This document shows positions 3,019 to 64,000 of a DNA stretch of 64,000 nt, piece by piece. A program made the translations under genes and the position numbers. Source of the stretch: Candidatus Borrarchaeum weybense (GTDB lineage Archaea > Asgardarchaeota > Sifarchaeia > Borrarchaeales > Borrarchaeaceae). The stretch is taken from NCBI GenBank assembly GCA_019057385.1, contig JAHQJS010000005.1, forward strand, positions 192,799 through 256,798, given 5' to 3'. The first letter of the stretch is position 1. The number at the start of each line of letters is the position of its first letter. The notes under the pieces are model-generated. The model had not been told where the DNA came from. It did not search any database and was given only the letters and a program-made list of their open reading frames with translations.

Positions 3019-3690
3019 CTAAGATTTTTGAATGCCACCTTTGCCCGTTACATCCGATATTTGCTTTTTAACTGCAAGGTTGACTTGAGTACCTAAATAA
3101 TAGGTGACTTCGCCGACATTATCTACCACCGCCAGCACCAATTTTTTCCTTACATTGCGCGCTTGACGAGTAACGCTATCTAAAACATCAAGTTTAAAAG
3201 GAGTGCCCTCTACAACAATACAAACAAGATACGCTGCCTCATCCTTTCCTAAAACTCCTCCGCGAGGATATATCCTGTAGTGTATTGGGTCACCTAGTCC
3301 TGCCCTGACGATATATCCTCGTGATCGCAAATCACGATAAACCAAATATCTTGTCCAAATTTGTGGATCATTTTTTAGGAAATATGTCAGAAGTTTATCG
3401 AATGTGAACGCCTCATCCTCGTCATCAGTGGTTACATTTAATCTACTGCGTTCTACTAAGAGCAGGCTTTCAATAGGAGAGAGCAGCAATTTGCGATCTT
3501 CATCAAAGGAGCCATAATATCCATTTCCATAAATCACATCTGCCCCTTCCTCAACTATTACAGAATTGTCCTTTAATTTGCCGTCTTGGGTTGGATAAGG
3601 TTCTCTTTCTTCTTTCTCCTCTTCATTTATTGAAGTTTCATCGTTCGAATTAACCACAAAAGTCCCTCTTGCATTATTTGATCTCATCAA
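3019..3690 (-). CDS. endA: tRNA-splicing endonuclease subunit, probably the structural (non-catalytic) one
   Basis: LSPIESLLL, YLVYRDLRSRGYIVR and VRKKLVLAVVD motifs. The catalytic His position reads Glu. The true start may be GTG at 3657. Confidence 0.85.
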   Translation of the reverse strand: MMRSNNARGTFVVNSNDETSINEEEKEEREPYPTQDGKLKDNSVIVEEGADVIYGNGYYGSFDEDRKLLLSPIESLLLVERSRLNVTTDDEDEAFTFDKLLTYFLKNDPQIWTRYLVYRDLRSRGYIVRAGLGDPIHYRIYPRGGVLGKDEAAYLVCIVVEGTPFKLDVLDSVTRQARNVRKKLVLAVVDNVGEVTYYLGTQVNLAVKKQISDVTGKGGIQKS

Positions 3691-4306: not shown

Positions 4307-5352
4307 GGAGCTTCTCTTAGTGCAGCTAAAGCTTCCTCAAATGGGGGATATATGACTCCCTTATCACAGATTAAAGCTGTGATTAGTTCAGGTGGTGTTA
4401 TATCGAAAGCGGGATTTAACACTGGCACATCATTAGGAACTATTTGTTGATCCCTACAAAATCTAACTTCCTTTGGGTCTCGCTGTTCGACAATGATATC
4501 TTCTAGTTTATGTACGAAATCAAAAGTAGTTATAGGAAGGGCTACGTAGAAAGGGATCTTGTGATGTTTTGTTAAAACCGCAAGCGCATATGTTCCGATC
4601 TTATTAAATACATGACCTGTAGATAAAACGCGATCAGCGCCAACAATTACACAATCTATAAGTTTCCGATAAATAAGTATCCCTGCGGCGTTATCTGGAA
4701 TAATAGTAATATTTACATCTTCCTGGGCGAGTTCAAATGCAGTGATTCTTCCTTGCAGAAAAGGTCTAGTCTCTGTAGCAAACACTTTTACATTTCTCCT
4801 TTTTTCAGAAGCAAGCGAAACTATCCCTTGAGCAGTTCCGTATTCACCGCTGGCTACTGCTAGTCCACCTGTGTGACAATGGATCAGAATGGTGAAATTA
4901 TCCTTTATGAGTTCAAGGCCATTTGCTGCAATCTGGAGATTCATTTTTCGGTCGTCATCTATTGCTAGTTCTGCTTCTCTCAAAATAAATGGTACAATTT
5001 CCTCTGTGGTTGAAAGTTTTGAAATGCCTTGTAAGACCTTATCAAGGACTAATGAAAGATTCACTGCTGTTGGACGTGCTTTTATTAGTTGGGCTGCTCC
5101 CTTTTTTAATTCAATTAGAAATTTATCAAAATCGACCGAGCCATAGCTTTTTTGTTTGATATGAAATGCATGCAGCACCAGTCCATATACGCCAGCAATA
5201 GCAATGGCTGGAGCCCCTCGGACAACCATGTTTTTTATGGCGCCTAGCACGTCTTCTAACTTTGAGCAAGTTACATATTCTAAAGAAGGCAGAGCGCGTT
5301 GATCTACAAAGATTAATGTTTTTGTGTCCTGTTTCCATTCAAATGGTTTCAT
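4303..5352 (-). CDS. mtnA: methylthioribose-1-phosphate isomerase (eIF2B-related family)
   Basis: DQR, MVVRGAPAI, RPTAVNL, ETRP, GADR, NKIGT, NPAFDITP. Confidence 0.88.
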   Translation of the reverse strand: MKPFEWKQDTKTLIFVDQRALPSLEYVTCSKLEDVLGAIKNMVVRGAPAIAIAGVYGLVLHAFHIKQKSYGSVDFDKFLIELKKGAAQLIKARPTAVNLSLVLDKVLQGISKLSTTEEIVPFILREAELAIDDDRKMNLQIAANGLELIKDNFTILIHCHTGGLAVASGEYGTAQGIVSLASEKRRNVKVFATETRPFLQGRITAFELAQEDVNITIIPDNAAGILIYRKLIDCVIVGADRVLSTGHVFNKIGTYALAVLTKHHKIPFYVALPITTFDFVHKLEDIIVEQRDPKEVRFCRDQQIVPNDVPVLNPAFDITPPELITALICDKGVIYPPFEEALAALREAP

Positions 5353-8581: not shown

Positions 8582-8724
8582 GCCCTGGTGGTGTAGCACG
8601 GCCTTTAACGATTATCACCAAGTCGTTAGCTGATATCATTTGGGACTGTCACTCACTTATGTGCGTTTGATGCATAAGTTGGGCAATTCCCAGGACCCGG
8701 GTTCAAATCCCGGCCAGGGCGCCA
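8582..8724 (+). tRNA. tRNA-Asp(GUC) with 2 introns (D-loop 8605-8634; position 38/39 8653-8687)
   Basis: Acceptor GCCCTGG/CCAGGGC+GCCA. Anticodon stem TGGGA/TCCCA. BHB helices CGGC/GCTG and TGTC/GGCA. Confidence 0.92.
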
Positions 8725-8823: not shown

Positions 8824-9006
8824 GGGCCCGTAGCTCAGCTAGGTAGACAAAGCCTTAATATCTTTGGCTGTAAGCGTCGGGCTTTTACGCATTACACTTA
8901 AGCAGTAAATAAAGCTTAAGCGATTAAAATGCAGAGACACCCGATGGCCACGGGTTCAAAGGATCCAAGCGCAACGACGGATCTGAAATTCCCGTCGGGC
9001 CCGCCA
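8824..9006 (+). tRNA. tRNA-Lys(UUU) with 3 introns (about 22/23 8847-8872; 37/38 8888-8938; 59/60 8961-8989)
   Basis: Spliced product GGGCCCGTAGCTCAGCTAGGTAGAGCGTCGGGCTTTTAACCCGATGGCCACGGGTTCAAATCCCGTCGGGCCCGCCA. BHB helices CTTT/AGAG and TTCA/TGAA. Confidence 0.92.
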
Positions 9007-14124: not shown

Positions 14125-17100
14125 ATGTCTACACTTCCAAAAATTATTAATCAAATCCAATTTGGTTTACTATCTCCAGATGATATACGAAAGATGTCCG
14201 TAACTAGAATCATCACAGCTGACACTTACGATGAAGATGGACTCCCTATTGACTCGGGACTAATGGACGGTCGATTAGGAACCATTGAACCGGGCCAAAC
14301 CTGTAAGAGCTGTGGAAATAGGGTGGGGGAATGTCCTGGACACTTCGGTCATATAGAATTAGCGCGCCCCGTAATACACGTAGGCTTCGCAAAAATTATC
14401 CAAAAGACTCTTAGAGCAATATGCAGAGATTGTTCCCGCCTTAGTTTAAATGACGATGAAAGGCAAGATTTTATTAAAAAAATGGATATATATGAAGAGG
14501 AATGGGGCGAACTAGATCCTGAGCTTGTAAAAGAAGTCCTAAAAAAAGCAACAAAAACAAATACATGTCCCGATTGTGGAAAAGAGAAATTGAAAATTCG
14601 TCTTGAAAAACCAACTACTTATTATGAAGAACATGAGTCTGGTGCCGCCCGTTTAACTCCAAGCGACATACGGGCAATCTTAGAAAAAATGCCCGATGAA
14701 GATTGTCGATTAATTGGGATTAATCCAGATGTTGTACGTCCAGAATGGATGATACTTATTGTACTTCCGGTTCCACCTGTTGCCGTGCGTCCAAGTATTA
14801 CCTTGGAATCTGGTGTTCGTTCAGAAGATGATCTTACACATAAATTAGTTGACATTATCAGGATTAATCAGAGGTTAAGCGAAAATATTGAGGCGGGTGC
14901 GCCGCAATTAATTGTTGATGACTTGTGGGAACTTTTACAGTATCATGTTACGACTTTTTTTGATAATGAAGTCTCAGGTATTCCTCCTGCACGTCATAGG
15001 TCAGGAAGGGCTTTAAGAACTCTATCTCAAAGACTTAAAGGAAAAGAAGGACGCTTTAGAAGCAATTTGTCAGGAAAACGTGTTGATTTCTCAGCACGTA
15101 CTGTTATTTCACCGGATCCAAATCTGGGTATTAACGAAGTAGGCGTACCTGAAGAAGTTGCACAAATTTTAACAATTCCAGAACGTGTTACGGAATGGAA
15201 TATTGAAGAAATGAGAGACCTTGTGATGCGAGGGCATGATGATCATCCAGGTGCGAATTATATCATTCGTAGCGACGGAAGACGAGTTGATTTACGGTTT
15301 GTAAAGGATAAAACTACAGTGAGTGAAGCCCTTAGACCAGGATATGTAGTAGAGCGTCATTTAAAAAAAGGAGATATTGTATTATTCAATCGTCAACCCT
15401 CTCTCCATAGAATGTCGATTATGGCACATGAAGTCAAAGTTATGCCTTTTAGGACGTTCAGACTTAATCTATGTGTCTGCCTCTCTGGTGATACAGAGGT
15501 TTATACAGATCTTGGCAGAATTTCTATTGAGAACCTTGTTAAAGATTATGAGAAGTATTCTCCTCTCTCTTGTAATTGGGATACTGACAAAACAACATAT
15601 TTCTCTGAAATTTCAGAAGTTCATGCTATAAACCCCAAGCAACTTGGACTTAAATCTTATGAAATTACAACCAAGACTGGGAGAATAATTAAAGCTACAG
15701 AGGACCATCCTTTCTATTCCAAGAAAGGCAAGACAAGGGCAGGCAATTTAAAGATTGGTGACTTCGTTGCTGTTTATCCCATCGAAATTCCTGAAATTGG
15801 TGGTTGCCCACCAGTTCTCACAGAGGAACAAGTTTTGGAAGCAATACCCGAAAATATCTATATACAATATACTATTAATGAACTAGCAGAAATGGAACTT
15901 CTCGACATTCCTGCAGGAACAAAGAAACAAATCTACCTGGCAAGCCTTGTCGGACATCTATTCGGTGATGGCTCATTACTTATCTCTTATGAGGGAGGAC
16001 GTGTTGTTTTTCGGGCATCTGATTATGAGGACATCCTTTCTCTTTATGATACTGTTACAAAGCTAAACCTTCAACCAACAGGCATTCAAGAATTTCAATC
16101 TCGTGGTATTCCTATCCAACAAACAGATGGAAATATATTGATACCTGAAGGAAAAACATATTTCTTTGAAGTAAGGCGAAAACCGGTTGCAATCGCTTTT
16201 AAGGCGCTAGGTGTACCTGTTGGTGACAAAGTAACTCAAGAATATCGTCTACCAGAATGGTTATTTGATGCACCAAAAATGGCAAAACGCGCGTTCCTAC
16301 GTGCATATTTTGGTGCTGAGCTATCAACGCCCAGATTACACATAAAATCAAAGTCTAAGTTTAACCAACCTATTCTTAAATTTGCCAAGATCGAAGGGTT
16401 ACGAGTAGATAACTTTATTCAAGATATCAAAACCCTCCTTGCTGAATTTAATATTGAAATCTCATCTATTTACACCGAAAGTGGTAATTTACGAAAAGAT
16501 GGCAAATCAACTATTATCTATGCATTAAACTTCGCCGCAAGCGATGAAAATTTACTTGCTTTATATAAGAAAATCGGATATGAATTTGCACGAGCCAAGG
16601 AAGAACTTGCACGACTAACTAGTGAATATATAACTGCAAAAAATACGGCAAAAGCAAAAGCCACTGCTCAACTTAGTCGTGCAAAAGAACTCCGAGAACA
16701 AGGATTAACCTATGAAGCTATAGCTAATGAAATCAACCATGAATCATGGCATACAATTGCATCATGGATTCGAAATGAAAGAATTGCGGCAGGGCTTCCA
16801 GCAAGTTTCCCTGAATTTCCAAAGTGGATGAAATCAGCTACTGAAGGATTAAAAAATGGATTTGTGTGGGACACGATAGTTAACATTGAAGAAATTGATC
16901 TTGAAGTAGCTTATGATATAACCATCAATGATGATAACCATAATTTCATTGCAGAAGATTTCCTAACCAGAAATTGTCCACCCTACAACGCCGACTTCGA
17001 CGGCGACGAGATGAATCTCCACGTACCGCAGAGCGAAGAAGCAAGAGCAGAAGCCAGAATTCTTATGCGTGTTGAAGAAAACATTCTCTCACCAAGATAT

Positions 17101-18279
17101 GGTGGTCCCATAATTGGTGCACTTCAAGATTACATATCTGCGGGATTTCTTCTTACGAGAAAGAATGCGTTCTTCACAAAAAAGGATGTATGCCAATTAT
17201 TCTATGCGGCAGGATTTAAAGACGACCTTCCGCCTCCTACGATACAAAAACCAGTTAAATTATGGTCTGGAAAGCAATTATTAAGTACACTAATACCTTC
17301 TCTCCTCAATTTAACACTTACCTCAAAAGCATGTATTAAATGCAAGGTTTGTGAAAAGGATGACTGCCCTAATGATGCTTATGTAATCGTCAGAAACGGA
17401 AAACTTATGTCTGGAGTTATTGACAAAAAGACACTGGGAGCTGGGCAAGCCAATTCTTTGCTTCACAGAATTGTAAAAGATTATGGAAGTCAAAAAGCCA
17501 GAGAATTCCTTGATTCCATTACCCGATTATTATTAGAATTAATTACATCAAAGGGTTTTACTCTTGGTCTTGATGATGTTGATCTTAGTGCCGAGTCAAA
17601 AAACATGATAGATGGAGTTTTAAACAAGGCAGAAGAACAAGTGGATGAACTTATTAGAGTATATAGACGAGGCGAACTAGAAAGACTTCCTGGACGAACT
17701 CTAGAGGAAACGTTAGAGATGAGGATCATGCAGGAACTAGCTGAGGCTAGAGACGATGCAGGTACAATTGCTGGGAGAAATCTTGGGCTAAATAACCATG
17801 CAGTGATAATGGCTACTACTGGTGCCAGAGGGAGTAATTTAAATCTCGCCCAGATGACAGCTTGTGTTGGTCAACAGTCTGTACGAGGTGAAAGAATCCA
17901 TAGGGGATATAGAGAACGCGTATTGCCTCATTTTAAGGAAGGTGACCTGAGCGCAACTGCGAGGGGTTTTGTAAAAGCAAGTTATAGAAGTGGATTAACT
18001 CCTATCGAATTCTTTTTCCATGCGATGGGTGGTCGGGAAGGCTTGGTAGATACAGCAGTTCGTACCAGCACTTCAGGTTATATGCAAAGACGATTGGTAA
18101 ATGCTTTGCAAGATATAAAGAACGAAAATGATGGAACTGTAAGAAACGCAATCGGTCAAATAATTCAATTCGTTTACGGTGAAGATGGGGTTGATCCTGC
18201 GAAAAGTGACCATGGGAAAGCAATGAACATTGACGTGATATTTGAAAAAATCCTTAGTCAAAGGAGGGTTGAAGAATAG
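14125..18279 (+). CDS. rpoA1: RNA polymerase subunit A' (Rpo1N), intein-containing
   Basis: CPGHFGHIEL, KGKEGRFR, NRQPSLH, catalytic YNADFDGDEMN. Confidence 0.98.
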   Translation: MSTLPKIINQIQFGLLSPDDIRKMSVTRIITADTYDEDGLPIDSGLMDGRLGTIEPGQTCKSCGNRVGECPGHFGHIELARPVIHVGFAKIIQKTLRAICRDCSRLSLNDDERQDFIKKMDIYEEEWGELDPELVKEVLKKATKTNTCPDCGKEKLKIRLEKPTTYYEEHESGAARLTPSDIRAILEKMPDEDCRLIGINPDVVRPEWMILIVLPVPPVAVRPSITLESGVRSEDDLTHKLVDIIRINQRLSENIEAGAPQLIVDDLWELLQYHVTTFFDNEVSGIPPARHRSGRALRTLSQRLKGKEGRFRSNLSGKRVDFSARTVISPDPNLGINEVGVPEEVAQILTIPERVTEWNIEEMRDLVMRGHDDHPGANYIIRSDGRRVDLRFVKDKTTVSEALRPGYVVERHLKKGDIVLFNRQPSLHRMSIMAHEVKVMPFRTFRLNLCVCLSGDTEVYTDLGRISIENLVKDYEKYSPLSCNWDTDKTTYFSEISEVHAINPKQLGLKSYEITTKTGRIIKATEDHPFYSKKGKTRAGNLKIGDFVAVYPIEIPEIGGCPPVLTEEQVLEAIPENIYIQYTINELAEMELLDIPAGTKKQIYLASLVGHLFGDGSLLISYEGGRVVFRASDYEDILSLYDTVTKLNLQPTGIQEFQSRGIPIQQTDGNILIPEGKTYFFEVRRKPVAIAFKALGVPVGDKVTQEYRLPEWLFDAPKMAKRAFLRAYFGAELSTPRLHIKSKSKFNQPILKFAKIEGLRVDNFIQDIKTLLAEFNIEISSIYTESGNLRKDGKSTIIYALNFAASDENLLALYKKIGYEFARAKEELARLTSEYITAKNTAKAKATAQLSRAKELREQGLTYEAIANEINHESWHTIASWIRNERIAAGLPASFPEFPKWMKSATEGLKNGFVWDTIVNIEEIDLEVAYDITINDDNHNFIAEDFLTRNCPPYNADFDGDEMNLHVPQSEEARAEARILMRVEENILSPRYGGPIIGALQDYISAGFLLTRKNAFFTKKDVCQLFYAAGFKDDLPPPTIQKPVKLWSGKQLLSTLIPSLLNLTLTSKACIKCKVCEKDDCPNDAYVIVRNGKLMSGVIDKKTLGAGQANSLLHRIVKDYGSQKAREFLDSITRLLLELITSKGFTLGLDDVDLSAESKNMIDGVLNKAEEQVDELIRVYRRGELERLPGRTLEETLEMRIMQELAEARDDAGTIAGRNLGLNNHAVIMATTGARGSNLNLAQMTACVGQQSVRGERIHRGYRERVLPHFKEGDLSATARGFVKASYRSGLTPIEFFFHAMGGREGLVDTAVRTSTSGYMQRRLVNALQDIKNENDGTVRNAIGQIIQFVYGEDGVDPAKSDHGKAMNIDVIFEKILSQRRVEE
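15478..16974 (+). mobile_element. intein with LAGLIDADG endonuclease in RpoA' (499 aa)
   Basis: RLNLCV|CLSGDT...ATEDHPF...LVGHLFGDGS...FLTRN|CPPYNADFDGD. Penultimate residue is Arg, not His. Confidence 0.95.
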
Positions 18280-21053
18280 CGGCTAAAACTAAACTCTCAG
18301 CTGTAGAGAAAAAATTGAAAAAAATTGAAGAAAACGATGAACTTCCTCTTGCAGTAATTAAAGAACTAAGTGCAAAATTAGAAGAAACTGAAGTAACTAA
18401 AAAGGAATTAGACTTACTTATCGAAGAAGCGAAAAAATCCTATTCAAAAGCTTTAGTGGAACCAGGAGAAGCTGTAGGTACAATAGCTGCGCAATCAATC
18501 GGTGAGCCAGGCACGCAAATGAGCATCCCTGGGACTGAAAAGGTAATCGTGAAAAGTAACGATTATGTGAACGTAGTTGAAATTGGAGATTTCGTAGATA
18601 ACCTCTTCTCTAATGCCGAAATTACCGACCATATTGGTGAAAGCGAAGTGTTAAGTCTAGAGTATGATGATTACCGTGTGCCTTGCATTGGTCAAGACGA
18701 AAAAACACATTGGCGAAGGCTAAGGCAAGTAAGTAGGCATCCTGTTAACGGTGAACTACTAAAAATCACTACTAGGTCGGGAAGAAAGATTGAGGCTACC
18801 CTCTCACATTCATATCTTATGCGTGATGAAAATAAAATTATCCCAGTAACTGGAAGATCTCTTAAAGTGGGTGACAGAATTCCTCTTATAAAACATTTAC
18901 AATCTGATCATAATCTAGAAAGCATACCAGTCGAACGATATATTCCTAAATACGAAGCGTGGTATGGTTCAGAATTTATTAAAGCTAAACGATCTTGGGA
19001 TCGACTTGGCAGTCATTGGAAAGAAGAATATAATGTCGCTTATACTGTCCCCGTTAAAGAAGACGGCCTGCGAATAGCATTCAAAACCAGAAAGGCAGAG
19101 ATGCTAACAGTAGGTCATGTTTATCCCAAAGCGTTTTCAAATACAGATATTCAAATCCCTGAGATATTCCAGTTGAATTATTTGTTTGGATGGTTCATAG
19201 GTGCATATATTGCTGAAGGATCAAATGCTGGAAATTACGTTTCAATCACTAATATTGACGAAAATTACCAAAATCGCACACAAAGGTTTGCTGACGAACT
19301 TTCAATATCTTGGCGGTTAATAGAAGAAACTGGGGAATTTGGACCAAGTGTATCCGTATGCTTATCATCGTCGTTGTTAGCGAAACTTCTAGTACGAATG
19401 TGCGGGAAGAATGCACCAGATAAATTTATACCAGACTGGGCGTTAAACGCACCGGAAGAGTTCGTTTCGGGGTTACTCCAAGCATATTTCGATGGCGACG
19501 GTAGTTTTTCTGTAGATCGAATGCAGATTCGCGCAACCAGTAAGTCTAAGGACTTGCGAGACGGAATATGCTTATTATTGTCGAGATTTGGAATTTTCGC
19601 TTCGAAACAAGAAGATGCTGAACAGTATAATTTAAGGATCCCTGGGAAGTATGCGCTTGTCTTTAAAGATAAGATTGGTTCGATAATTCCTCATAAAAGA
19701 GATATATTAGACCAAATGGTAACAAGTGAAGAAAATAAAGAAATTACCTATGACATTATTGATATGATTTCGGGTTTTGGTAAGATATTAAACAACCTCC
19801 GTATCAAGTTGAAAATTGACGCCCACTCTTCTCTAGCAGCAAGTATTAGAAAATATACAACTAATCAAGTGATCGGTAGGCAAACCCTAGCACGGTATGT
19901 AACATTAATAGTTGAGGAAGCAAAGAAAAAAAATATTGATATAAGCAACGAAATAAATACGTTACAGCGAGCCCTTGAGAGCGATGTGATCTGGGATCAA
20001 ATAACTTCTATAGAATTAGTGAAATCTCCCACTTCACTAGTATACGATTTCTCGGTTGAACAACACGAAAATTTCACTACGGCAGAGGGCTTAATAACTC
20101 ACAACACGTTAAGAACTTTCCATTACGCAGGAGTCGCTGAATTGAATGTAACGCTCGGACTTCCTCGACTGATTGAAATTGTGGATGCACGTAAAAATCC
20201 TTCAACACCCATGATGACAATTTTTCTAGATGATGCTCATAAAGAAGATGGAATAAAAGCCCGTGAAGTGGCACGGCGTATTGAGGAAACAAAAATAGAG
20301 AAGGTAACTTATGATATAGAAATCAATCTTAGCAATATGCAAATTGATCTGAAATTAGATCCTGATCTAATGGACGATAAAGGTTTAACTGCGGAATTTA
20401 TTGTAGAAAAAATTAATAAACTCAAGAAAGGAGATGCAGAACTCCAGGATGATTATACGATTATTGTCCGACCAAAACTTGATAACTTTACAGAGTTACA
20501 AAAACTTGCAGAAAAAATTCGATCTTTACCATTGAAGGGCCTCAAAGACGTCAAAAGAACGGTTATTCGAAAAGAAGAGGAGGAATTTGTCATCTATTCT
20601 GAAGGTACAAACTTATTAAATGTCCTTCGTGTTTCAGGCGTACATCCCATGCGGACTATTTCTAATCATATTCATGAGATTTCAGAATGCCTAGGCATCG
20701 AAGCAGCAAGGAACATTATTATAGCAGAAGCTATAAATGTGCTTGAAGAACAGGGATTAGATGTCGACCTAAGACACGTTATGCTAGTCGCAGACCTTAT
20801 GACAGTCACAGGCGAGGTCAGACAAATTGGTCGTCATGGCATTAGTGGTGAAAAAGCTAGTGTTTTAGCAAGAGCGGCTTTTGAAGTAACTGTGAAACAT
20901 TTACTAGAAGCAAGCACCCGAGGCGAGATTGATCATTTAAAGGGAATAACTGAAAACGTGATTATCGGGCAAACAATATTGTTAGGGACAGGGGCGATAG
21001 ATCTTATGATGAATCGAGAAGGGAAAAAAAAGGCGAAGGAGGACAAAGCATAA
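18276..21053 (+). CDS. rpoA2: RNA polymerase subunit A'' (Rpo1C), intein-containing; start probably ATA 18276 (TTG 18315 is the alternative)
   Basis: GEAVGTIAAQSIGEPGTQM...TLRTFHYAG, LGLPRLIEI, RAAFE. GGAGG at 18263-18267. Confidence 0.95.
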   Translation: MAAKTKLSAVEKKLKKIEENDELPLAVIKELSAKLEETEVTKKELDLLIEEAKKSYSKALVEPGEAVGTIAAQSIGEPGTQMSIPGTEKVIVKSNDYVNVVEIGDFVDNLFSNAEITDHIGESEVLSLEYDDYRVPCIGQDEKTHWRRLRQVSRHPVNGELLKITTRSGRKIEATLSHSYLMRDENKIIPVTGRSLKVGDRIPLIKHLQSDHNLESIPVERYIPKYEAWYGSEFIKAKRSWDRLGSHWKEEYNVAYTVPVKEDGLRIAFKTRKAEMLTVGHVYPKAFSNTDIQIPEIFQLNYLFGWFIGAYIAEGSNAGNYVSITNIDENYQNRTQRFADELSISWRLIEETGEFGPSVSVCLSSSLLAKLLVRMCGKNAPDKFIPDWALNAPEEFVSGLLQAYFDGDGSFSVDRMQIRATSKSKDLRDGICLLLSRFGIFASKQEDAEQYNLRIPGKYALVFKDKIGSIIPHKRDILDQMVTSEENKEITYDIIDMISGFGKILNNLRIKLKIDAHSSLAASIRKYTTNQVIGRQTLARYVTLIVEEAKKKNIDISNEINTLQRALESDVIWDQITSIELVKSPTSLVYDFSVEQHENFTTAEGLITHNTLRTFHYAGVAELNVTLGLPRLIEIVDARKNPSTPMMTIFLDDAHKEDGIKAREVARRIEETKIEKVTYDIEINLSNMQIDLKLDPDLMDDKGLTAEFIVEKINKLKKGDAELQDDYTIIVRPKLDNFTELQKLAEKIRSLPLKGLKDVKRTVIRKEEEEFVIYSEGTNLLNVLRVSGVHPMRTISNHIHEISECLGIEAARNIIIAEAINVLEEQGLDVDLRHVMLVADLMTVTGEVRQIGRHGISGEKASVLARAAFEVTVKHLLEASTRGEIDHLKGITENVIIGQTILLGTGAIDLMMNREGKKKAKEDKA
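18522..20105 (+). mobile_element. intein with LAGLIDADG endonuclease in RpoA'' (528 aa)
   Basis: PGTQM|SIPGTE...FIGAYIAEGS...LLQAYFDGDGS...LITHN|TLRTFH. Confidence 0.95.
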
Positions 21054-25002: not shown

Positions 25003-25169
25003 TGGTGGGTCCGGCGGGAGTTTCAGATCAGAGCATAGCTCTAAATCCTTTGAACCCGCGATCTCCGCAACTCTCCCTTCTTGAGGGAGAACTTATCCGG
25101 CTCCGCAGGCATACGCCTTAGACTAGTTTTATCTAAGTCGGCGCCCGATCCAGGCTAGACTACGGACCC
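25003..25169 (-). tRNA. tRNA-Arg(GCG) with 3 introns (29/30 25111-25138; variable loop about 25063-25094; 59/60 25020-25048)
   Basis: Acceptor GGGTCCG/CGGACCC+ACCA, anticodon loop CTGCGGA, A20 present. BHB helices GCGC/GCGT and TTCA/TGAA. Confidence 0.92.
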
Positions 25170-55775: not shown

Positions 55776-55882
55776 TGGCGGGTCCGGCGAGATTTGAACT
55801 CGCGATCGCCCAGCAACATCGATATGATGGTTGCAATCAGGCTTAGGAGGCCTGTGCCCTATCCTGGCTAGGCCACGGACCC
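55776..55882 (-). tRNA. tRNA-Arg(CCU) with 1 variable-loop intron (about 55807-55835)
   Basis: GGGTCCGTGGCCTAGCCAGGATAGGGCACAGGCCTCCTAAGCCTG...GCGAGTTCAAATCTCGCCGGACCCGCCA. Confidence 0.92.
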
Positions 55883-55969: not shown

Positions 55970-56107
55970 TGGCGGGTCCGATGGGATTCGAACCCATGAG
56001 TCGACGCACTCCTCCGAATTGAGGGAGAGCATTTCCGGCTTCGAAGGCTTACGCCCTAGACACAATGTGTCAAGGTCGGCGCCTCATCCAGGCTAGGCCA
56101 CGGACCC
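55970..56107 (-). tRNA. tRNA-Arg(UCG) with 2 introns (29/30 56049-56076; variable loop about 56000-56031)
   Basis: GGGTCCG/CGGACCC+GCCA, loop CTTCGAA, A20 present, BHB helix GCGC/GCGT. Confidence 0.9.
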
Positions 56108-59204: not shown

Positions 59205-59518
59205 ACATTAATAGAATATTTTCATTATTTAACAGAAGTCTAACCCCTCAAAAAGAGACATTTGCTTGAAAACAAGCTTATAGTGAACCTCAAATTCGTT
59301 TTAAGTTACTGAAATATTTGTATAAGGCGTTAATATTTTAAATGAATTAATGGATGATACTTTGTCCTTTTCATGTAAGAATAACAAAAGGACTCTAATC
59401 CCATTTCAAGAACCCAATCATTTTATTGATTATTGAACTCAAAAACTGGCAAGTAGGCTGCACTCTAAGAAAAAGAATTAGCAATTACTTGTTAAGGTCA
59501 TTAGGAGGAAAGAGTATA

Positions 59519-62506
59519 TTGAAAATGTCAAGAAAATTTACGCCAGTATCTATTGAAGAAACGATTTTGAAATTTTGGGAGGATAATAAGATCTATCAAA
59601 AAACGAAAGATTATCGAAAGGGCAAAGAAAAGTTTTACTTCTGCGATGGTCCCCCTTATACGACTGGGAGCATTCATTTAGGCACTGCATGGAATAAAAT
59701 CATCAAAGATTTCTTCCTCAGATACAGGCGCATGAGAGGTTATGACGTCTATGATCGCCCAGGGTATGATATGCACGGATTACCCATTGAAGTCGCTATT
59801 GAGAAGAAACTGGGCATCGAAACGAAAAAGCAAATCGTTTCATTTGGCGTGGAACGCTTTATTGAAGAATGTAGAGCATTTGCGATTGAAAACCTCAATA
59901 AGATGACAGAACAATTTAAAAGGTTAGCTGTGTGGATGGATTGGGAAGATCCGTACATGACAATCAAAGATTCTTATATCGAGGGTGCTTGGTGGGCACT
60001 TAAGAAAGCGTATGAAAAGGATCTTCTATACAAAGGCACGAGAGTATTGAATTCTTGCCCTAGATGTGAAACTGTTCTCGCTAAGCATGAGTATGAGTAT
60101 AAGACAGTTGGAGATCCTTCAATTTTTGTAAAATTTCAACTAAGAGACACGCCAAATGAATATTTCATAGTTTGGACAACGACACCTTGGACTCTCCCTA
60201 GCGACTTAGCAGTTATGGTACACCCAGAGTTCGAATACGTTCGTGCTCAGGTTGAAGATGAAATCTGGATCATTGGAAAGTTTGTCTCAGTAGGTATTAT
60301 TTCAGCAATGCTTGAAAAAAAATTCAAGGTAATCGAAGAAGTCACAGGTGAAATACTGCGGGAAAGAGGACTCCGTTATATTCATCCGCTCATTGAAGAA
60401 GTTCCTATTATGCAGGAATTTTATGAAAAATATCCGGAAGCACATTCTGTATTATTGAGCAGTGAGTTTGTAACGAAACTGCAAGGTACTGGTATCGTTC
60501 ATAGCTCTCCTGGGGCTGGACCTGAGGACTTTGAGGTAGGAACAAGATATGGACTTCCTCCTTTTTCGCCACTTGATGAAGCTGGACGTTTTACTGAAGA
60601 GGCTGGAAAATACGCTGGATTATTTGTTAAAGATGCAGATCCTATCATAATTGAGGATTTAAGGAGAAAAGGTCTGCTTCTTGCGACTCATCGAGTTGAA
60701 CACGAGTATGCTCATTGCTGGAGATGCAAGAGCCCTTTGATATTTCAAGCTACAAGCCAATGGATGTTGAATTTAACGAAAGAAAAAGAAAAGATTCTTG
60801 CAGAAAATGACAAAGTTAAATGGTCTCCAGATTGGGCAGGTAGTCAGAGTTTTAGGAGCTGGTTAGAAAACCTGCAAGATTGGTGCATTAGTCGACAAAG
60901 ATATTGGGGTATACCTCTACCGCTCTGGATTTGCGATGCATGTGAATCTATTGAGGTTATAGGATCAAGAAAAGAACTATTAGGTATGTATGGAAAACCT
61001 GTTGATGATTTTCACCGACCTTGGATTGATGAGGTAACATGGGTTTGTGCCTGTGGTGGTACCTTTCGAAGGGTACCCGATGTATTAGACGTTTGGCTGG
61101 ACAGTGGCGCAGCAACATGGGCTATCTTGCCCTATCCTGAAGATCCTAAAACCTACGATTACTGGTGGCCTGCCGACTTCATTTTAGAAGGTAAAGATCA
61201 AGTTAGAGGCTGGTTCAACTCACAAATCTGTCTAAGTGTTGTAGCAAACGATAGGAGACCTTACGAGGCAGTTTATATGCATGGTTTTGTTGCAGATACC
61301 GAGGGACGGAAAATGAGCAAATCTTTAGGAAATGCAATTGAACCCAGTGCCGTTATTGAGAAGTATGGCTCCGAAGCGTTTAGATTCTATTCTTTAGCTA
61401 CACCTCCAGGCGAAGATATGAAATTCGATTTTAAAACTCAACAGGATTACTTCAAAATTCTGAATATTCTTTGGAACACTTACATGTTCGCAATATCACG
61501 AGTCAAAGAGTCCAACTTTAATGTACAGGACCATTCTCTCGATACTGCTGAACTTCAGATAGAAGATAATTGGCTTATTTCGCGTTTCCACTCTGCACTT
61601 AACAAGATGACCCGCGCCTTCGAAGCAATGCGCCCGGGAGATACAATTCCCATTATGCAGGAATTAATTGTTGAAGACATAAGTAGATGGTATATTCGCC
61701 TAATCCGAGAACGCACATGGATTTCTGAGTCGGGATCAAGCAAAGCAACTGCACTTACTACCCTTGTAACTGTCCTCACAGAAACTGCCAAGATGTTTGC
61801 TCCTGTTCTCCCAATAATAGCAGAATCAGTCTATCAAAATTTCATTCGTGAACAATATCCTGATTTGCCTGAGTCTATCCATATGTGCGATTGGTCTGAA
61901 GTTAACGAATCATTCCGTGATGAAAAACTAGAAAATGCTATGAAAGACGCACGAAAAATTGTAGAACTTACTCTAGCGCTTCGAGATGAGCATAATATCA
62001 AATTAAGATGGCCTTGTAAGAGACTCGTTGTGATATCGAAAGAAGGTTTTGGTGATATATCAGAAGTAATTCCCGCAATCGTTCACGAGGCAAATGTAAA
62101 AGATGTGCTTGTAACTGAAACGTTACCTAGTTCAACAGAACATTTAGTTGGTATGGTAAGCGATTCATTTGACCTCTACCTCGATTTAGAAATCACTGAT
62201 GAAATTGCCTCAGAAAGACTTGTAAGAGAATTCATGCGCCAAGTACAATTTACTCGAAAGAAAAACAGACTTAATGTAAGTGATCGTGTTGACCTCATTG
62301 TAGTAACTCAAGATGACAAAATCAGACAGTATTTAACAGAGTGGCGAGAAGAAATCATCGCAAAAGTCGGAGCGCAAAACTATGAGGCACAAAAGAACGA
62401 TATAGAAGAAGATTTTAAAGATCACTACCCCATATTCAGTGAATTGCAGTATGAGAATGCCAAAGTCAAAATATATATGAAAAAAACTTCCCTTTCTTCT
62501 AAATGA
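59519..62506 (+). CDS. ileS: isoleucine--tRNA ligase
   Basis: DGPPY..G.IHLG, WTTTPWT, WCISRQRYWG, EGKDQ.RGWF, KMSKS. Start is ambiguous (ATA 59516, TTG 59519 or ATG 59525). Confidence 0.97.
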   Translation: MKMSRKFTPVSIEETILKFWEDNKIYQKTKDYRKGKEKFYFCDGPPYTTGSIHLGTAWNKIIKDFFLRYRRMRGYDVYDRPGYDMHGLPIEVAIEKKLGIETKKQIVSFGVERFIEECRAFAIENLNKMTEQFKRLAVWMDWEDPYMTIKDSYIEGAWWALKKAYEKDLLYKGTRVLNSCPRCETVLAKHEYEYKTVGDPSIFVKFQLRDTPNEYFIVWTTTPWTLPSDLAVMVHPEFEYVRAQVEDEIWIIGKFVSVGIISAMLEKKFKVIEEVTGEILRERGLRYIHPLIEEVPIMQEFYEKYPEAHSVLLSSEFVTKLQGTGIVHSSPGAGPEDFEVGTRYGLPPFSPLDEAGRFTEEAGKYAGLFVKDADPIIIEDLRRKGLLLATHRVEHEYAHCWRCKSPLIFQATSQWMLNLTKEKEKILAENDKVKWSPDWAGSQSFRSWLENLQDWCISRQRYWGIPLPLWICDACESIEVIGSRKELLGMYGKPVDDFHRPWIDEVTWVCACGGTFRRVPDVLDVWLDSGAATWAILPYPEDPKTYDYWWPADFILEGKDQVRGWFNSQICLSVVANDRRPYEAVYMHGFVADTEGRKMSKSLGNAIEPSAVIEKYGSEAFRFYSLATPPGEDMKFDFKTQQDYFKILNILWNTYMFAISRVKESNFNVQDHSLDTAELQIEDNWLISRFHSALNKMTRAFEAMRPGDTIPIMQELIVEDISRWYIRLIRERTWISESGSSKATALTTLVTVLTETAKMFAPVLPIIAESVYQNFIREQYPDLPESIHMCDWSEVNESFRDEKLENAMKDARKIVELTLALRDEHNIKLRWPCKRLVVISKEGFGDISEVIPAIVHEANVKDVLVTETLPSSTEHLVGMVSDSFDLYLDLEITDEIASERLVREFMRQVQFTRKKNRLNVSDRVDLIVVTQDDKIRQYLTEWREEIIAKVGAQNYEAQKNDIEEDFKDHYPIFSELQYENAKVKIYMKKTSLSSK

Positions 62507-62549: not shown

Positions 62550-62565
62550 CGAAAGATATTAAATA
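62550..62565 (+). promoter_or_regulatory. putative BRE/TATA for the UAU tRNA
   Basis: cgaaagatattaaata ends 25 nt before the tRNA 5' end. Confidence 0.6.
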
Positions 62566-62590
62566 AAACACCTAATATTTCGTTACATGA

Positions 62591-62788
62591 GGGTCCGTGG
62601 CCTAGCCAGGTTAGCAGCGCTTCAATGTGCTGACCGAGGGGCGCCGGCCTTATATGACCTCGTCCCATACAAAGCAGGCCTAAGATAGCCGGAGACTGCC
62701 TGTTTCTTGCTATTACCGGCAGCCGAAGATCGCGGGTTCGAATGTCTTGAGCAAATCGCTCATTTCGAAAAGCCCGCCGGACCCACCA
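62591..62788 (+). tRNA. tRNA with UAU (Ile) anticodon and 4 introns (21/22 62614-62638; 37/38 62655-62686; 45/46 62695-62728; 59/60 62743-62771)
   Basis: Spliced product GGGTCCGTGGCCTAGCCAGGTTAGGGCGCCGGCCTTATAAGCCGGAGATCGCGGGTTCGAAGCCCGCCGGACCCACCA. BHB helices AGGT/ACCG, CTTA/TAAG, CCGG/CCGA, TTCG/CGAA. Confidence 0.88.
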
Positions 62789-62874
62789 CTTTCTTCTTTT
62801 TAATGAATATTTTTATTCTCTATACTATCATTTTTCAAGAAACATTGAAAAGGTCATATTAAGAGGTAATGACC

Positions 62875-64000
62875 ATGTCCCCCTACAGGCAATTCGCAGA
62901 GGAATGCATTATACTTACACAGAAAACCCTTCAAGCTGTCTTTCCAGAACTATCAGTAACACTCAATCATGAAATTCCGGCTAAATTAGAGTTTGGAGAG
63001 TTGGCAGTTCCTGTTTTTCATATCGCAAAGAAAATAAACAAAAAACCCAAAGATCTTGCAGAAATTCTCATTGAAAATATCAACCCTTCAAATTCACGCT
63101 TCATAAAAGAAGTAGTAATAGGTGGAGCAGGCTATCTAAATTTCTTTGCAAATTATGATTCCTTTGCAAATCTCGTTATAAACTCAATAAGAACCCTGGA
63201 TACAAGTTATGGAAAAAGTGAAGCGAAGAAAAAGGAAAAAATTATAGTAGAATACTTGAGTCCAAATCCAAATTCTCCTTTGCATATCGGTCATGCACGA
63301 AATGCAATTCTAGGCAGTTCACTAGTCAAAGTTTTGCAAACACAATCTCATGATGTTTGTTCTCACATATATATCGATGATGTTGGTCGACAGGTTGCGA
63401 TATGTGTACAAGGTCTACGGATGGTAGATAGAGACACTCAGCCTTCAGACATGAAGTCAGACCAATTTGTAGGAACAATTTACACAATAACAAATGCACT
63501 TACTGAAATTCAGAAGGCAAAAAAGGAACAAAATGACTTAGCTGAATGGGAATCAATCGCAGAAGAATTAAAAAAAGCACAGCCTAGTATTTTCGACCAG
63601 ATTAGTAATAACTCAGAAAATATCGACTTAGATGCGGAAATATCGACCCTCATATCTCTTTATGAAAATCAAGATGAACAAACTGTTCAACTTTTCAGAA
63701 GTCTTGTTGATTTAGTTCTTGGAGGATTTAAGGAGACCTTCAAAACAATTGATATAGCTTTCGAAAGCTATGATTGGGAAAGTTCGTTCATCTGGGATGG
63801 AAGTGTTACAAAGATTTTAAACGAACTAAAAATGACACCTTTTGTTACAGAACTCGATGGTGCATTAGTCTTCGATTGTGAGAAAGCTGCAACTGAATTT
63901 AATATTAAAGAGAGTTTGGGGGTTAAAGAAACTCATGAAATTCCTCCTATGACTTTAATGAGATCTGATGGCACGACTCTTTATACAACACGGGATATAG
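62875..64000 (+). CDS. argS: arginine--tRNA ligase (partial, runs off the window end)
   Basis: FGELAVP, GYLNF, EYLSPNPNSPLHIGHARNAILG, YIDDVGRQ, RSDGTTLYTTRDI. Confidence 0.95.
   Translation, partial: MSPYRQFAEECIILTQKTLQAVFPELSVTLNHEIPAKLEFGELAVPVFHIAKKINKKPKDLAEILIENINPSNSRFIKEVVIGGAGYLNFFANYDSFANLVINSIRTLDTSYGKSEAKKKEKIIVEYLSPNPNSPLHIGHARNAILGSSLVKVLQTQSHDVCSHIYIDDVGRQVAICVQGLRMVDRDTQPSDMKSDQFVGTIYTITNALTEIQKAKKEQNDLAEWESIAEELKKAQPSIFDQISNNSENIDLDAEISTLISLYENQDEQTVQLFRSLVDLVLGGFKETFKTIDIAFESYDWESSFIWDGSVTKILNELKMTPFVTELDGALVFDCEKAATEFNIKESLGVKETHEIPPMTLMRSDGTTLYTTRDI

Follow-up and report, generated by a model that had tools for sequence, protein, structure and literature searches.

A tRNA-Ile(UAU) gene with four introns lies between ileS and argS

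The window, by which we mean the whole 64,000-nt stretch that was analysed (contig C5, 192799-256798, of genome G000), comes from a Borrarchaeaceae assembly of 4.18 Mb in 8 contigs that is 100% complete with 7% contamination. Between the genes of the isoleucyl- and arginyl-tRNA synthetases (IleRS and ArgRS) it carries a 198-nt tRNA gene on the forward strand, made of five exons and four introns and with the CCA end encoded. The tRNA gene starts 84 nt past the stop codon of the gene for the 1026-aa IleRS, and the ArgRS gene begins 81 nt further on. The features referred to below are, in window coordinates:

3100-3360 (-): EndA paralogue, catalytic domain (tRNA_int_endo match)
25003-25169 (-): tRNA-Arg(GCG), three introns; A73, A20
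55776-55882 (-): tRNA-Arg(CCU), one intron, at 45/46
59426-62506 (+): ileS, IleRS of a clade found in TiaS-less Asgard families only, with half of DUF5915
62556-62568 (+): putative A/T-rich TATA-like element, read from the sequence, ~30 nt upstream of the tRNA
62591-62788 (+): tRNA-Ile(UAU) gene, encoded CCA at 62786-62788; orthologues known
62591-62613 (+): exon 1, acceptor 5' strand, U8, D stem 5' strand GCCT, D loop AGCCAGGTTA (U at 20)
62614-62638 (+): intron 1, 25 nt, at 21/22 (D loop); BHB with three of four central pairs, outer helix of 3 bp, inner helix of 6 bp
62639-62654 (+): exon 2, D stem 3' strand GGGC, G26, anticodon stem CCGGC, nt 32-37 CTTATA
62655-62686 (+): intron 2, 32 nt, at the canonical 37/38; strict central helix of C32-A35 with TAAG, 3-nt bulges TAT and ATA
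62687-62694 (+): exon 3, A38, anticodon stem 3' strand GCCGG, nt 44-45
62695-62728 (+): intron 3, 34 nt, at 45/46 (variable loop); relaxed BHB with three of four central pairs, 5-bp inner helix, weak outer helix
62729-62742 (+): exon 4, 3' part of the variable loop, T stem GCGGG, T loop nt 54-59
62743-62771 (+): intron 4, 29 nt, at 59/60 (T loop); central helix of 4 bp, outer helix of 5 bp (the T stem), weak inner helix
62772-62788 (+): exon 5, G60, T stem 3' strand, acceptor 3' strand, A73, CCA
62869-63999 (+): argS, 5' part; the gene runs past the window end

When the exons were joined by hand, they gave a 75-nt cloverleaf plus CCA with stems of 7, 4, 5 and 5 pairs, and all 21 pairs were standard. 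The spliced product has U8, A14, G18G19, U33, A37 and A73, an anticodon loop CTTATAA and a T loop TTCGAAG; its anticodon TAT lies within exon 2 (62651-62653). All four introns fit the BHB geometry of two 3-nt bulges separated by four pairs, with the cuts past the second bulge base. The central helix is complete at 37/38 and 59/60 and has three of four pairs at 21/22 and 45/46. As some of the flanking helices are weak, we regard the introns as relaxed forms of the motif, introns 3 and 4 in particular. The first-pass annotation, which was made from the letters of the window, had already placed a tRNA with a spliced UAU anticodon between ileS and argS and had paired TAAG of its 37/38 intron with nt 32-35, and the hand splicing bears this out. 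It had also described an upstream promoter element, an encoded CCA and a T-rich tail; the CCA and the 3' tail are there, and what can be recognised of the upstream element is the TATA-like stretch.

The gene was missed by ARAGORN, with and without its intron mode, and by Rfam at both gathering and E-value thresholds; the sole Rfam match in the window was tRNA-Arg(CCU) at 55779-55882 (-). When the complete assembly was searched for combinations of acceptor stem, T arm and anticodon arm whose loops could hold introns, this locus was the only convincing TAT tRNA in the genome. A strict BHB scanner failed on the true introns, as there are mismatches inside the flanking helices. Template-guided spliced alignment mis-spliced several orthologues as well as the gene of G000, and identities are therefore given from hand counts. 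A 16-mer scan of a contig collection returned 120 hits, mostly bacterial and by chance. In genomes of this kind, essential Asgard tRNAs escape standard tRNA finders.

The gene is conserved within the genus

The gene is present in three other species of the genus (G001, G003 and G004). G004 has the same 198-nt layout with 12 differences, 11 of them in the 120 intron nucleotides and one in the 78 exon nucleotides. The single exon difference is D-loop nt 17a, where a C completes the central helix of intron 1 (four of four pairs in G004). G004 and G001 both have the TAT anticodon; in G003, whose contig covers the 3' part only and does not reach the anticodon, the intron retains its pairing TAAG. 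Intron 4 is absent from G001 and G003, and their unbroken T loop, TTCGAAG, equals the predicted spliced product of G000. Metagenome contigs from two other studies span the anticodon and show no change. As G004, G001 and these independent contigs agree, TAT can be put down neither to faulty assembly nor to a mutation confined to G000; it had been judged an unlikely sequencing error at the outset. At the level of sequence, the pattern of kept exons and drifting introns confirms that the tRNA gene is real and under selection.

TiaS is absent and AUA keeps an isoleucine-like meaning

Telling AUA from AUG is among the few points where the three domains use different chemistry: most archaea read AUA by means of TiaS and agmatidine, and eukaryotes use an intron-containing tRNA-Ile(UAU), the intron of which guides anticodon modification in yeast. 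The TiaS_FLD profile (PF08489) had no match in the 100% complete G000 assembly, while all four archaeal control genomes scored above the cut-off. A tblastn search of G000 with three full-length Asgard TiaS proteins gave a best E value of 0.05, and TiaS was found in none of the four other genomes of the genus. The 151 Asgard genomes surveyed include 80 with TiaS; it is absent altogether from families f1 (to which the present genus belongs), f3, f10, f12, f13, f20 and f23. The earlier suggestion that AUA might be read here independently of TiaS is supported by these searches.

ATA is a frequent codon in G000, with 27 per 1000 codons in long open frames, or ~30% of the isoleucine codons. In an alignment of 30 Asgard IleRS sequences, the columns that hold the 16 ATA codons of the G000 ileS contain I (22%), V (19%) and L (19%). 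Columns of ATT and ATC codons looked similar, AGA columns held R or K, and ATG columns held M. The alignment, although not strictly specific for isoleucine, shows that AUA keeps an aliphatic, Ile-like meaning; the first-pass annotation had read ATA as Ile at a single RNA polymerase site. Such a meaning speaks against charging with arginine.

The only clear CAU tRNA in G000 is initiator-like (C5:353423-353529). The scan that found it recovered ~30 of the ~45 expected tRNAs and did not recover the elongator tRNA-Met, so the tRNA inventory of G000 is incomplete; the genes of the missing tRNAs are probably split or interrupted by introns within their stems. We thus take tRNA-Ile2(CAU) to be probably missing, from the absence of TiaS and not from the tRNA scan. 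A search of G000 for a second CAU tRNA found none, the anticodon-arm scan returning noise. The pattern GCCGGCCTCATA matched coding DNA only, and with it the tRNA-Ile2(CAU) of TiaS-positive relatives was not recovered. A separate tRNA-Arg(UCU), the presence of which the first reading had proposed to check, lies at C5:430786-430894 and has A20 and G73.

Orthologues follow ileS in other TiaS-less Asgard families

Orthologues of the tRNA with a UAU anticodon were found in the TiaS-less families f3, f10, f12, f13 and f20. The anticodon arm G26-CCGGC-CUUAUA...A-GCCGG is the same in f3, f12, f13 and f20; the stem in f10 is CAGGU/GCCUG. In f3, f12, f13 and f20, the 37/38 intron, which is homologous to that of G000, ends in four bases that pair with nt 32-35, and the genes also have a D-loop intron and a variable-loop intron. 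The start of the 37/38 intron reads N-GACC-N-CG in f3, f13 and f20, and f12 departs from this with T-GGTCCCG; across families, both the start and the end of this intron are thus kept. The D-loop intron lies at about the same place as intron 1 in f3, f13 and f20, and an intron at 45/46 is found in orthologues of other families as well as in the tRNA-Arg(CCU) of G000. The D arm outside f1 is of the ordinary GCTC or GCTT type, and the Arg-like D stem GCCT/GGGC is a change confined to this genus.

In f1, f3, f12 (genome G117), f13 and f20, ileS is followed immediately downstream by the tRNA. The tRNA does not adjoin ileS in f10 or in three f12 genomes; no tRNA at all adjoins ileS in these or in the TiaS-positive families. 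ArgS adjoins the tRNA in f1 only.

The introns also bear on the origin of the anticodon. Wherever the intron of an orthologue was resolved, its base facing nt 35 is T, which makes A35 an ancestral base rather than one that was newly acquired and compensated. Opposite nt 34 the base is G in f3 and f13 and A in f1, f12 and f20. The G makes a G-U wobble at present and would pair perfectly with C34, which fits an ancestral C34, i.e. a tRNA-Ile2(CAU) and not a tRNA-Arg(UCU). On this pairing pattern, the most likely origin of the gene is a tRNA-Ile2(CAU) that contained an intron and in which C34 was changed to U.

As separate observations, the f13 orthologue (locus L170 in G016, 4520-4760; locus L172 in G026) has about five introns, one of them inside the anticodon stem, and the 3' end of the G026 tRNA reads A-TCA rather than A-CCA.

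Resemblance to the arginine tRNAs

The acceptor, anticodon and T stems of tRNA-Ile(UAU) equal those of tRNA-Arg(GCG), as had been noticed at first, and the two tRNAs also have A73 in common. Positions 1-25 match tRNA-Arg(CCU) except for nt 20; a match over the first 27 nt with this one exception had been claimed, which is slightly overstated, since nt 26 differs as well (G versus A). Over exon 1, 22 of 23 nt are shared with tRNA-Arg(CCU) and ~16 of 23 with the f3 orthologue. The D stem GCCT/GGGC is of the arginine type in G000, where tRNA-Ile(GAU) has GCTC/GAGC. These features, together with the 45/46 intron common to this tRNA and the arginine tRNAs, would favour the proposal that, in this lineage, a duplicate of an arginine tRNA of the UCU type exchanged C35 for A and A20 for U, so switched its identity to isoleucine and gave rise to a new route for decoding AUA.

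The main determinants of ArgRS are A20 in the D loop and C35 in the anticodon. The arginine tRNAs of G000 (GCG, CCU, UCU and CCG) all have both, and tRNA-Ile(UAU) has U20 and A35 instead; the absence of both determinants, to which the first-pass annotation had pointed, is thus real. However, in four other families the orthologue has the same UAU anticodon, the CCGGC stem, a similar start of the 37/38 intron, a D-loop intron and a place after ileS, together with an ordinary D arm. No D-loop intron was seen in any of the arginine tRNAs of G000. A UCU origin is also disfavoured by the T that faces nt 35 in all resolved orthologues and by the G that f3 and f13 have opposite nt 34, which fits a CAU ancestor. 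Moreover, the shared stems CCGGC, GCGGG and GGGNCCG are common GC-rich stems of archaea. Outside the anticodon loop, identity by hand count was ~89% to tRNA-Arg(GCG), ~87% to the f20 orthologue and ~77% to the f3 orthologue, i.e. the f20 orthologue is about as similar as the arginine tRNA. As the stems compared are all GC-rich archaeal consensus, identity alone cannot settle the origin. Taken together, the sequence comparisons do not support an Arg-to-Ile switch as the origin of the gene, and we consider it highly improbable.

A mixed history would be that the gene is an old, ileS-linked tRNA-Ile(UAU) in which, in the ancestor of this genus, gene conversion replaced exon 1 and the D arm by those of a tRNA-Arg, with nt 20 kept as, or reset to, U. 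The 22 of 23 matching nucleotides of exon 1, as compared to ~16 for the f3 orthologue, would agree with this, as would the D-stem change, which is common to G000, G004 and G001. Yet the changes that have to be explained are just two D-stem base pairs and the acceptor pair 4-69, for which point mutation is enough. Pair 4-69 is variable in the genus, being A4-U69 in G001, which differs from the tRNA-Arg(CCU) of G000, and on 23 nt no boundary of a conversion tract can be demonstrated. We hold such a conversion to be unlikely.

The arginine-like body of the tRNA and the neighbouring argS could also be taken to mean that ArgRS or some other enzyme charges it, AUA being recoded or ambiguous, or that the gene is a decaying pseudogene. 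But the ATA codons align with I, V and L and not with R or K, and a codon as frequent as ATA argues in the same direction. Both main ArgRS determinants are missing, the exons are conserved while the introns drift, and argS is a neighbour in this genus alone. The chance that such a reading is correct seems to us close to nil. The origin that we favour remains a tRNA-Ile2(CAU) whose D stem changed later.

The IleRS of TiaS-less families forms a separate clade

The G000 IleRS was compared with those of other Asgard families. It shares 45-52% identity over nearly the full length with the IleRS of the TiaS-less families f13, f3, f12 and f10, and 36-40% identity, extending only to about residue 900, with that of most TiaS-positive families, including f2 of the same class. 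In a maximum-likelihood tree of 30 Asgard IleRS sequences, the 15 from TiaS-less families make up one side of a single branch with an SH-aLRT support of 100, so that the TiaS-less label needs one change as compared to a mean of 10.3 when labels are shuffled. In the control tree of AlaRS, which is encoded in the same window, the label needs three changes and the families are scattered; the association of IleRS with TiaS should be read as that of five non-independent families against one control gene. The G000 AlaRS is nearest to TiaS-positive families (53-56% identity, versus 37-47% for f3, f13 and f10).

The two types of IleRS also differ at the C-terminal, anticodon side. The Pfam domain DUF5915 is complete in the TiaS-positive sequences (n=2; profile positions ~2-193, 94-146 bits), and only its second half is matched in the TiaS-less ones (n=3; ~83-184, 32-45 bits). 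Against the IleRS of PDB entries 8C8V/8C9D, the TiaS-positive G005 protein scored 1052 bits end to end and that of G000 593 bits; against human cytoplasmic IleRS the scores were 738 and 530 bits, respectively. These lower scores relative to G005 indicate that the UAU-associated IleRS is more derived and not more eukaryote-like.

Aminoacyl-tRNA synthetases are often transferred. From the tree and the gene order, the synthetase and the tRNA may have been passed on together, and the change at nt 34 may be reflected in the remodelled C-terminal domain; the pair could have come to the Borrarchaeaceae by transfer or by sorting of an old duplicate. A stronger version is that ileS and tRNA-Ile(UAU) are a co-inherited two-gene module that displaced TiaS and tRNA-Ile2 in several unrelated Asgard lineages and reached the Borrarchaeaceae horizontally. 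We regard this version as tentative, with the odds somewhat against it. If it were true, the movement of a matched enzyme-tRNA pair would have rewired how the archaeal relatives of eukaryotes decode AUA.

Proposed route of AUA decoding and comparison with known systems

Our main reading, to which we would give a probability of about 85%, is that the locus encodes the precursor of a tRNA-Ile(UAU) that replaces TiaS and tRNA-Ile2(CAU), and that it is the local copy of an ileS-linked, CAU-derived orthologue found across TiaS-less Asgard families. It draws on what was observed of the structure and conservation of the gene, the lack of TiaS, the meaning of AUA, the linkage and the IleRS clade. The splicing endonuclease would remove the four introns to give the mature 75-nt tRNA, which the IleRS encoded 84 nt upstream would charge; U34 would presumably be modified, and the tRNA would read AUA as isoleucine in place of TiaS and tRNA-Ile2(CAU). 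A73, A37 and the linkage to ileS kept in five families point indirectly to charging by IleRS. The orthologue, present in six TiaS-less families and directly after ileS in five, would be paired with one clade of IleRS, the shortened C-terminal anticodon-side domain of which may have a part in this pairing. The gene would have begun as an intron-containing tRNA-Ile2(CAU) in which C34 became U, and in this genus the D stem would later have changed to the Arg-like GCCT/GGGC, nt 20 staying U as in tRNA-Ile.

Similar replacements are known from other lineages. Nanoarchaeum equitans and Korarchaeum cryptofilum have no tiaS and have a tRNA-Ile with a TAT anticodon (PMC8450103; PMC3575796). In these species, as here, a genomic TAT (tRNA-Ile3(UAU)) takes the place of tRNA-Ile2(CAU) for AUA; the gene described here differs in being from an Asgard archaeon and in having four introns. 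The linkage to ileS and the distinct IleRS clade are stated for the Asgard case alone and are not meant as a contrast to these two species. In ARMAN-2, -4 and -5, a precursor of tRNA-Ile(UAU) that bears a 37/38 intron is cut in vitro by the ARMAN endonuclease, and TiaS is absent (Fujishima et al. 2011, PMC3239211). Both TiaS and tRNA-Ile(CAU) have been lost there, and the broad-specificity endonuclease also cuts introns at 59/60 (PMC3239211). The UAU anticodon, the canonical 37/38 BHB intron and the loss of TiaS are thus common to ARMAN and the present case. ARMAN, however, belongs to a DPANN phylum, has an epsilon2 endonuclease where G000 has two EndA paralogues, and has one intron in this tRNA where G000 has four.

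The cytosolic tRNA-Ile(UAU) of eukaryotes contains an intron and carries pseudouridine at positions 34 and 36 (PMC3575796). The likeness lies in a U34 tRNA that reads AUA and in a 37/38 intron that is always present and pairs with the anticodon. Pseudouridine at 34 and 36 and intron-dependent modification are stated here for eukaryotes only; in addition, as the bit scores to the human enzyme indicate, the UAU-linked Asgard IleRS is less like the eukaryotic IleRS than is the TiaS-positive Asgard one. In the bacterium Mycoplasma mobile, the enzyme that modifies C34 was lost, the tRNA is tRNA-Ile(UAU), and IleRS is thought to have adapted to the new anticodon (PMC3575796). These three points resemble the Asgard situation, although the enzyme lost was TilS rather than TiaS, the IleRS is of type 1 and there are no introns. 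Asgard tRNA genes are known to be heavily interrupted, with 2.12 per gene in the Borrarchaeaceae (bioRxiv 10.64898/2026.10.13.758758); that study does not mention UAU, Ile or TiaS. We found no literature that joins TiaS or agmatidine with Asgard lineages. What is new here is the case of a Borrarchaeota-type genome with four introns in this gene, the rejection of an arginine origin, the finding that the tRNA is linked to ileS in five families, and the IleRS clade that goes with it.

If the main reading holds, about half of the sampled Asgard genomes, including the Borrarchaeota-type genus, would use a U34 route to AUA, always with a 37/38 intron and with an IleRS clade of its own. This would offer a testable system for the handling of UAU by an archaeal ribosome and IleRS, for intron-guided anticodon modification and for spread by the transfer of an enzyme-tRNA pair.

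Splicing endonuclease and other tRNA genes of the genome

Besides the EndA paralogue in the window, a second one has its catalytic domain at C4:663774-664019 of G000; the two open frames encode 226 and 230 aa. Two EndA genes are expected for a heteromeric archaeal splicing endonuclease of broad specificity, and the two paralogues suggest that G000 has such an enzyme.

Most of the recovered G000 tRNAs have a 28-32-nt intron at T-loop position 59/60 (e.g. C4:332411-332721, C5:191572-191708 and C8:121901-122039), and many also have a ~30-nt intron at 45/46, the same positions recurring over many isoacceptors. In the tRNA-Arg(GCG) of the window, an intron interrupts the anticodon stem on its 5' side, following nt 29, in addition to those at 45/46 and 59/60; this tRNA was missed by ARAGORN, by Rfam and by the scan for acceptor, T and anticodon arms. 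Further intron-bearing tRNAs of the window are Ala(UGC) at 55970-56107 (-), which was found by ARAGORN, a probable Asp(GUC) at 8582-8724 (+) and Lys(UUU) at 8824-9006 (+); none of these three was reported by Rfam at the gathering score.

Contig C1 of G000 (179 kb, outside the window) has 12 intron-less tRNA genes in tight clusters and 800 N; one cluster has seven such hits between 19435 and 19896. Nearly all tRNAs found elsewhere in the assembly are split by introns. C1 resembles foreign DNA of bacterial or viral origin, which would agree with the contamination estimate of 7%. Finally, the genes in the window for RNA polymerase A' (14125-18279, +) and A'' (18315-21053, +) both contain inteins (Intein_splicing matches), and A'' also has a LAGLIDADG homing-endonuclease domain.
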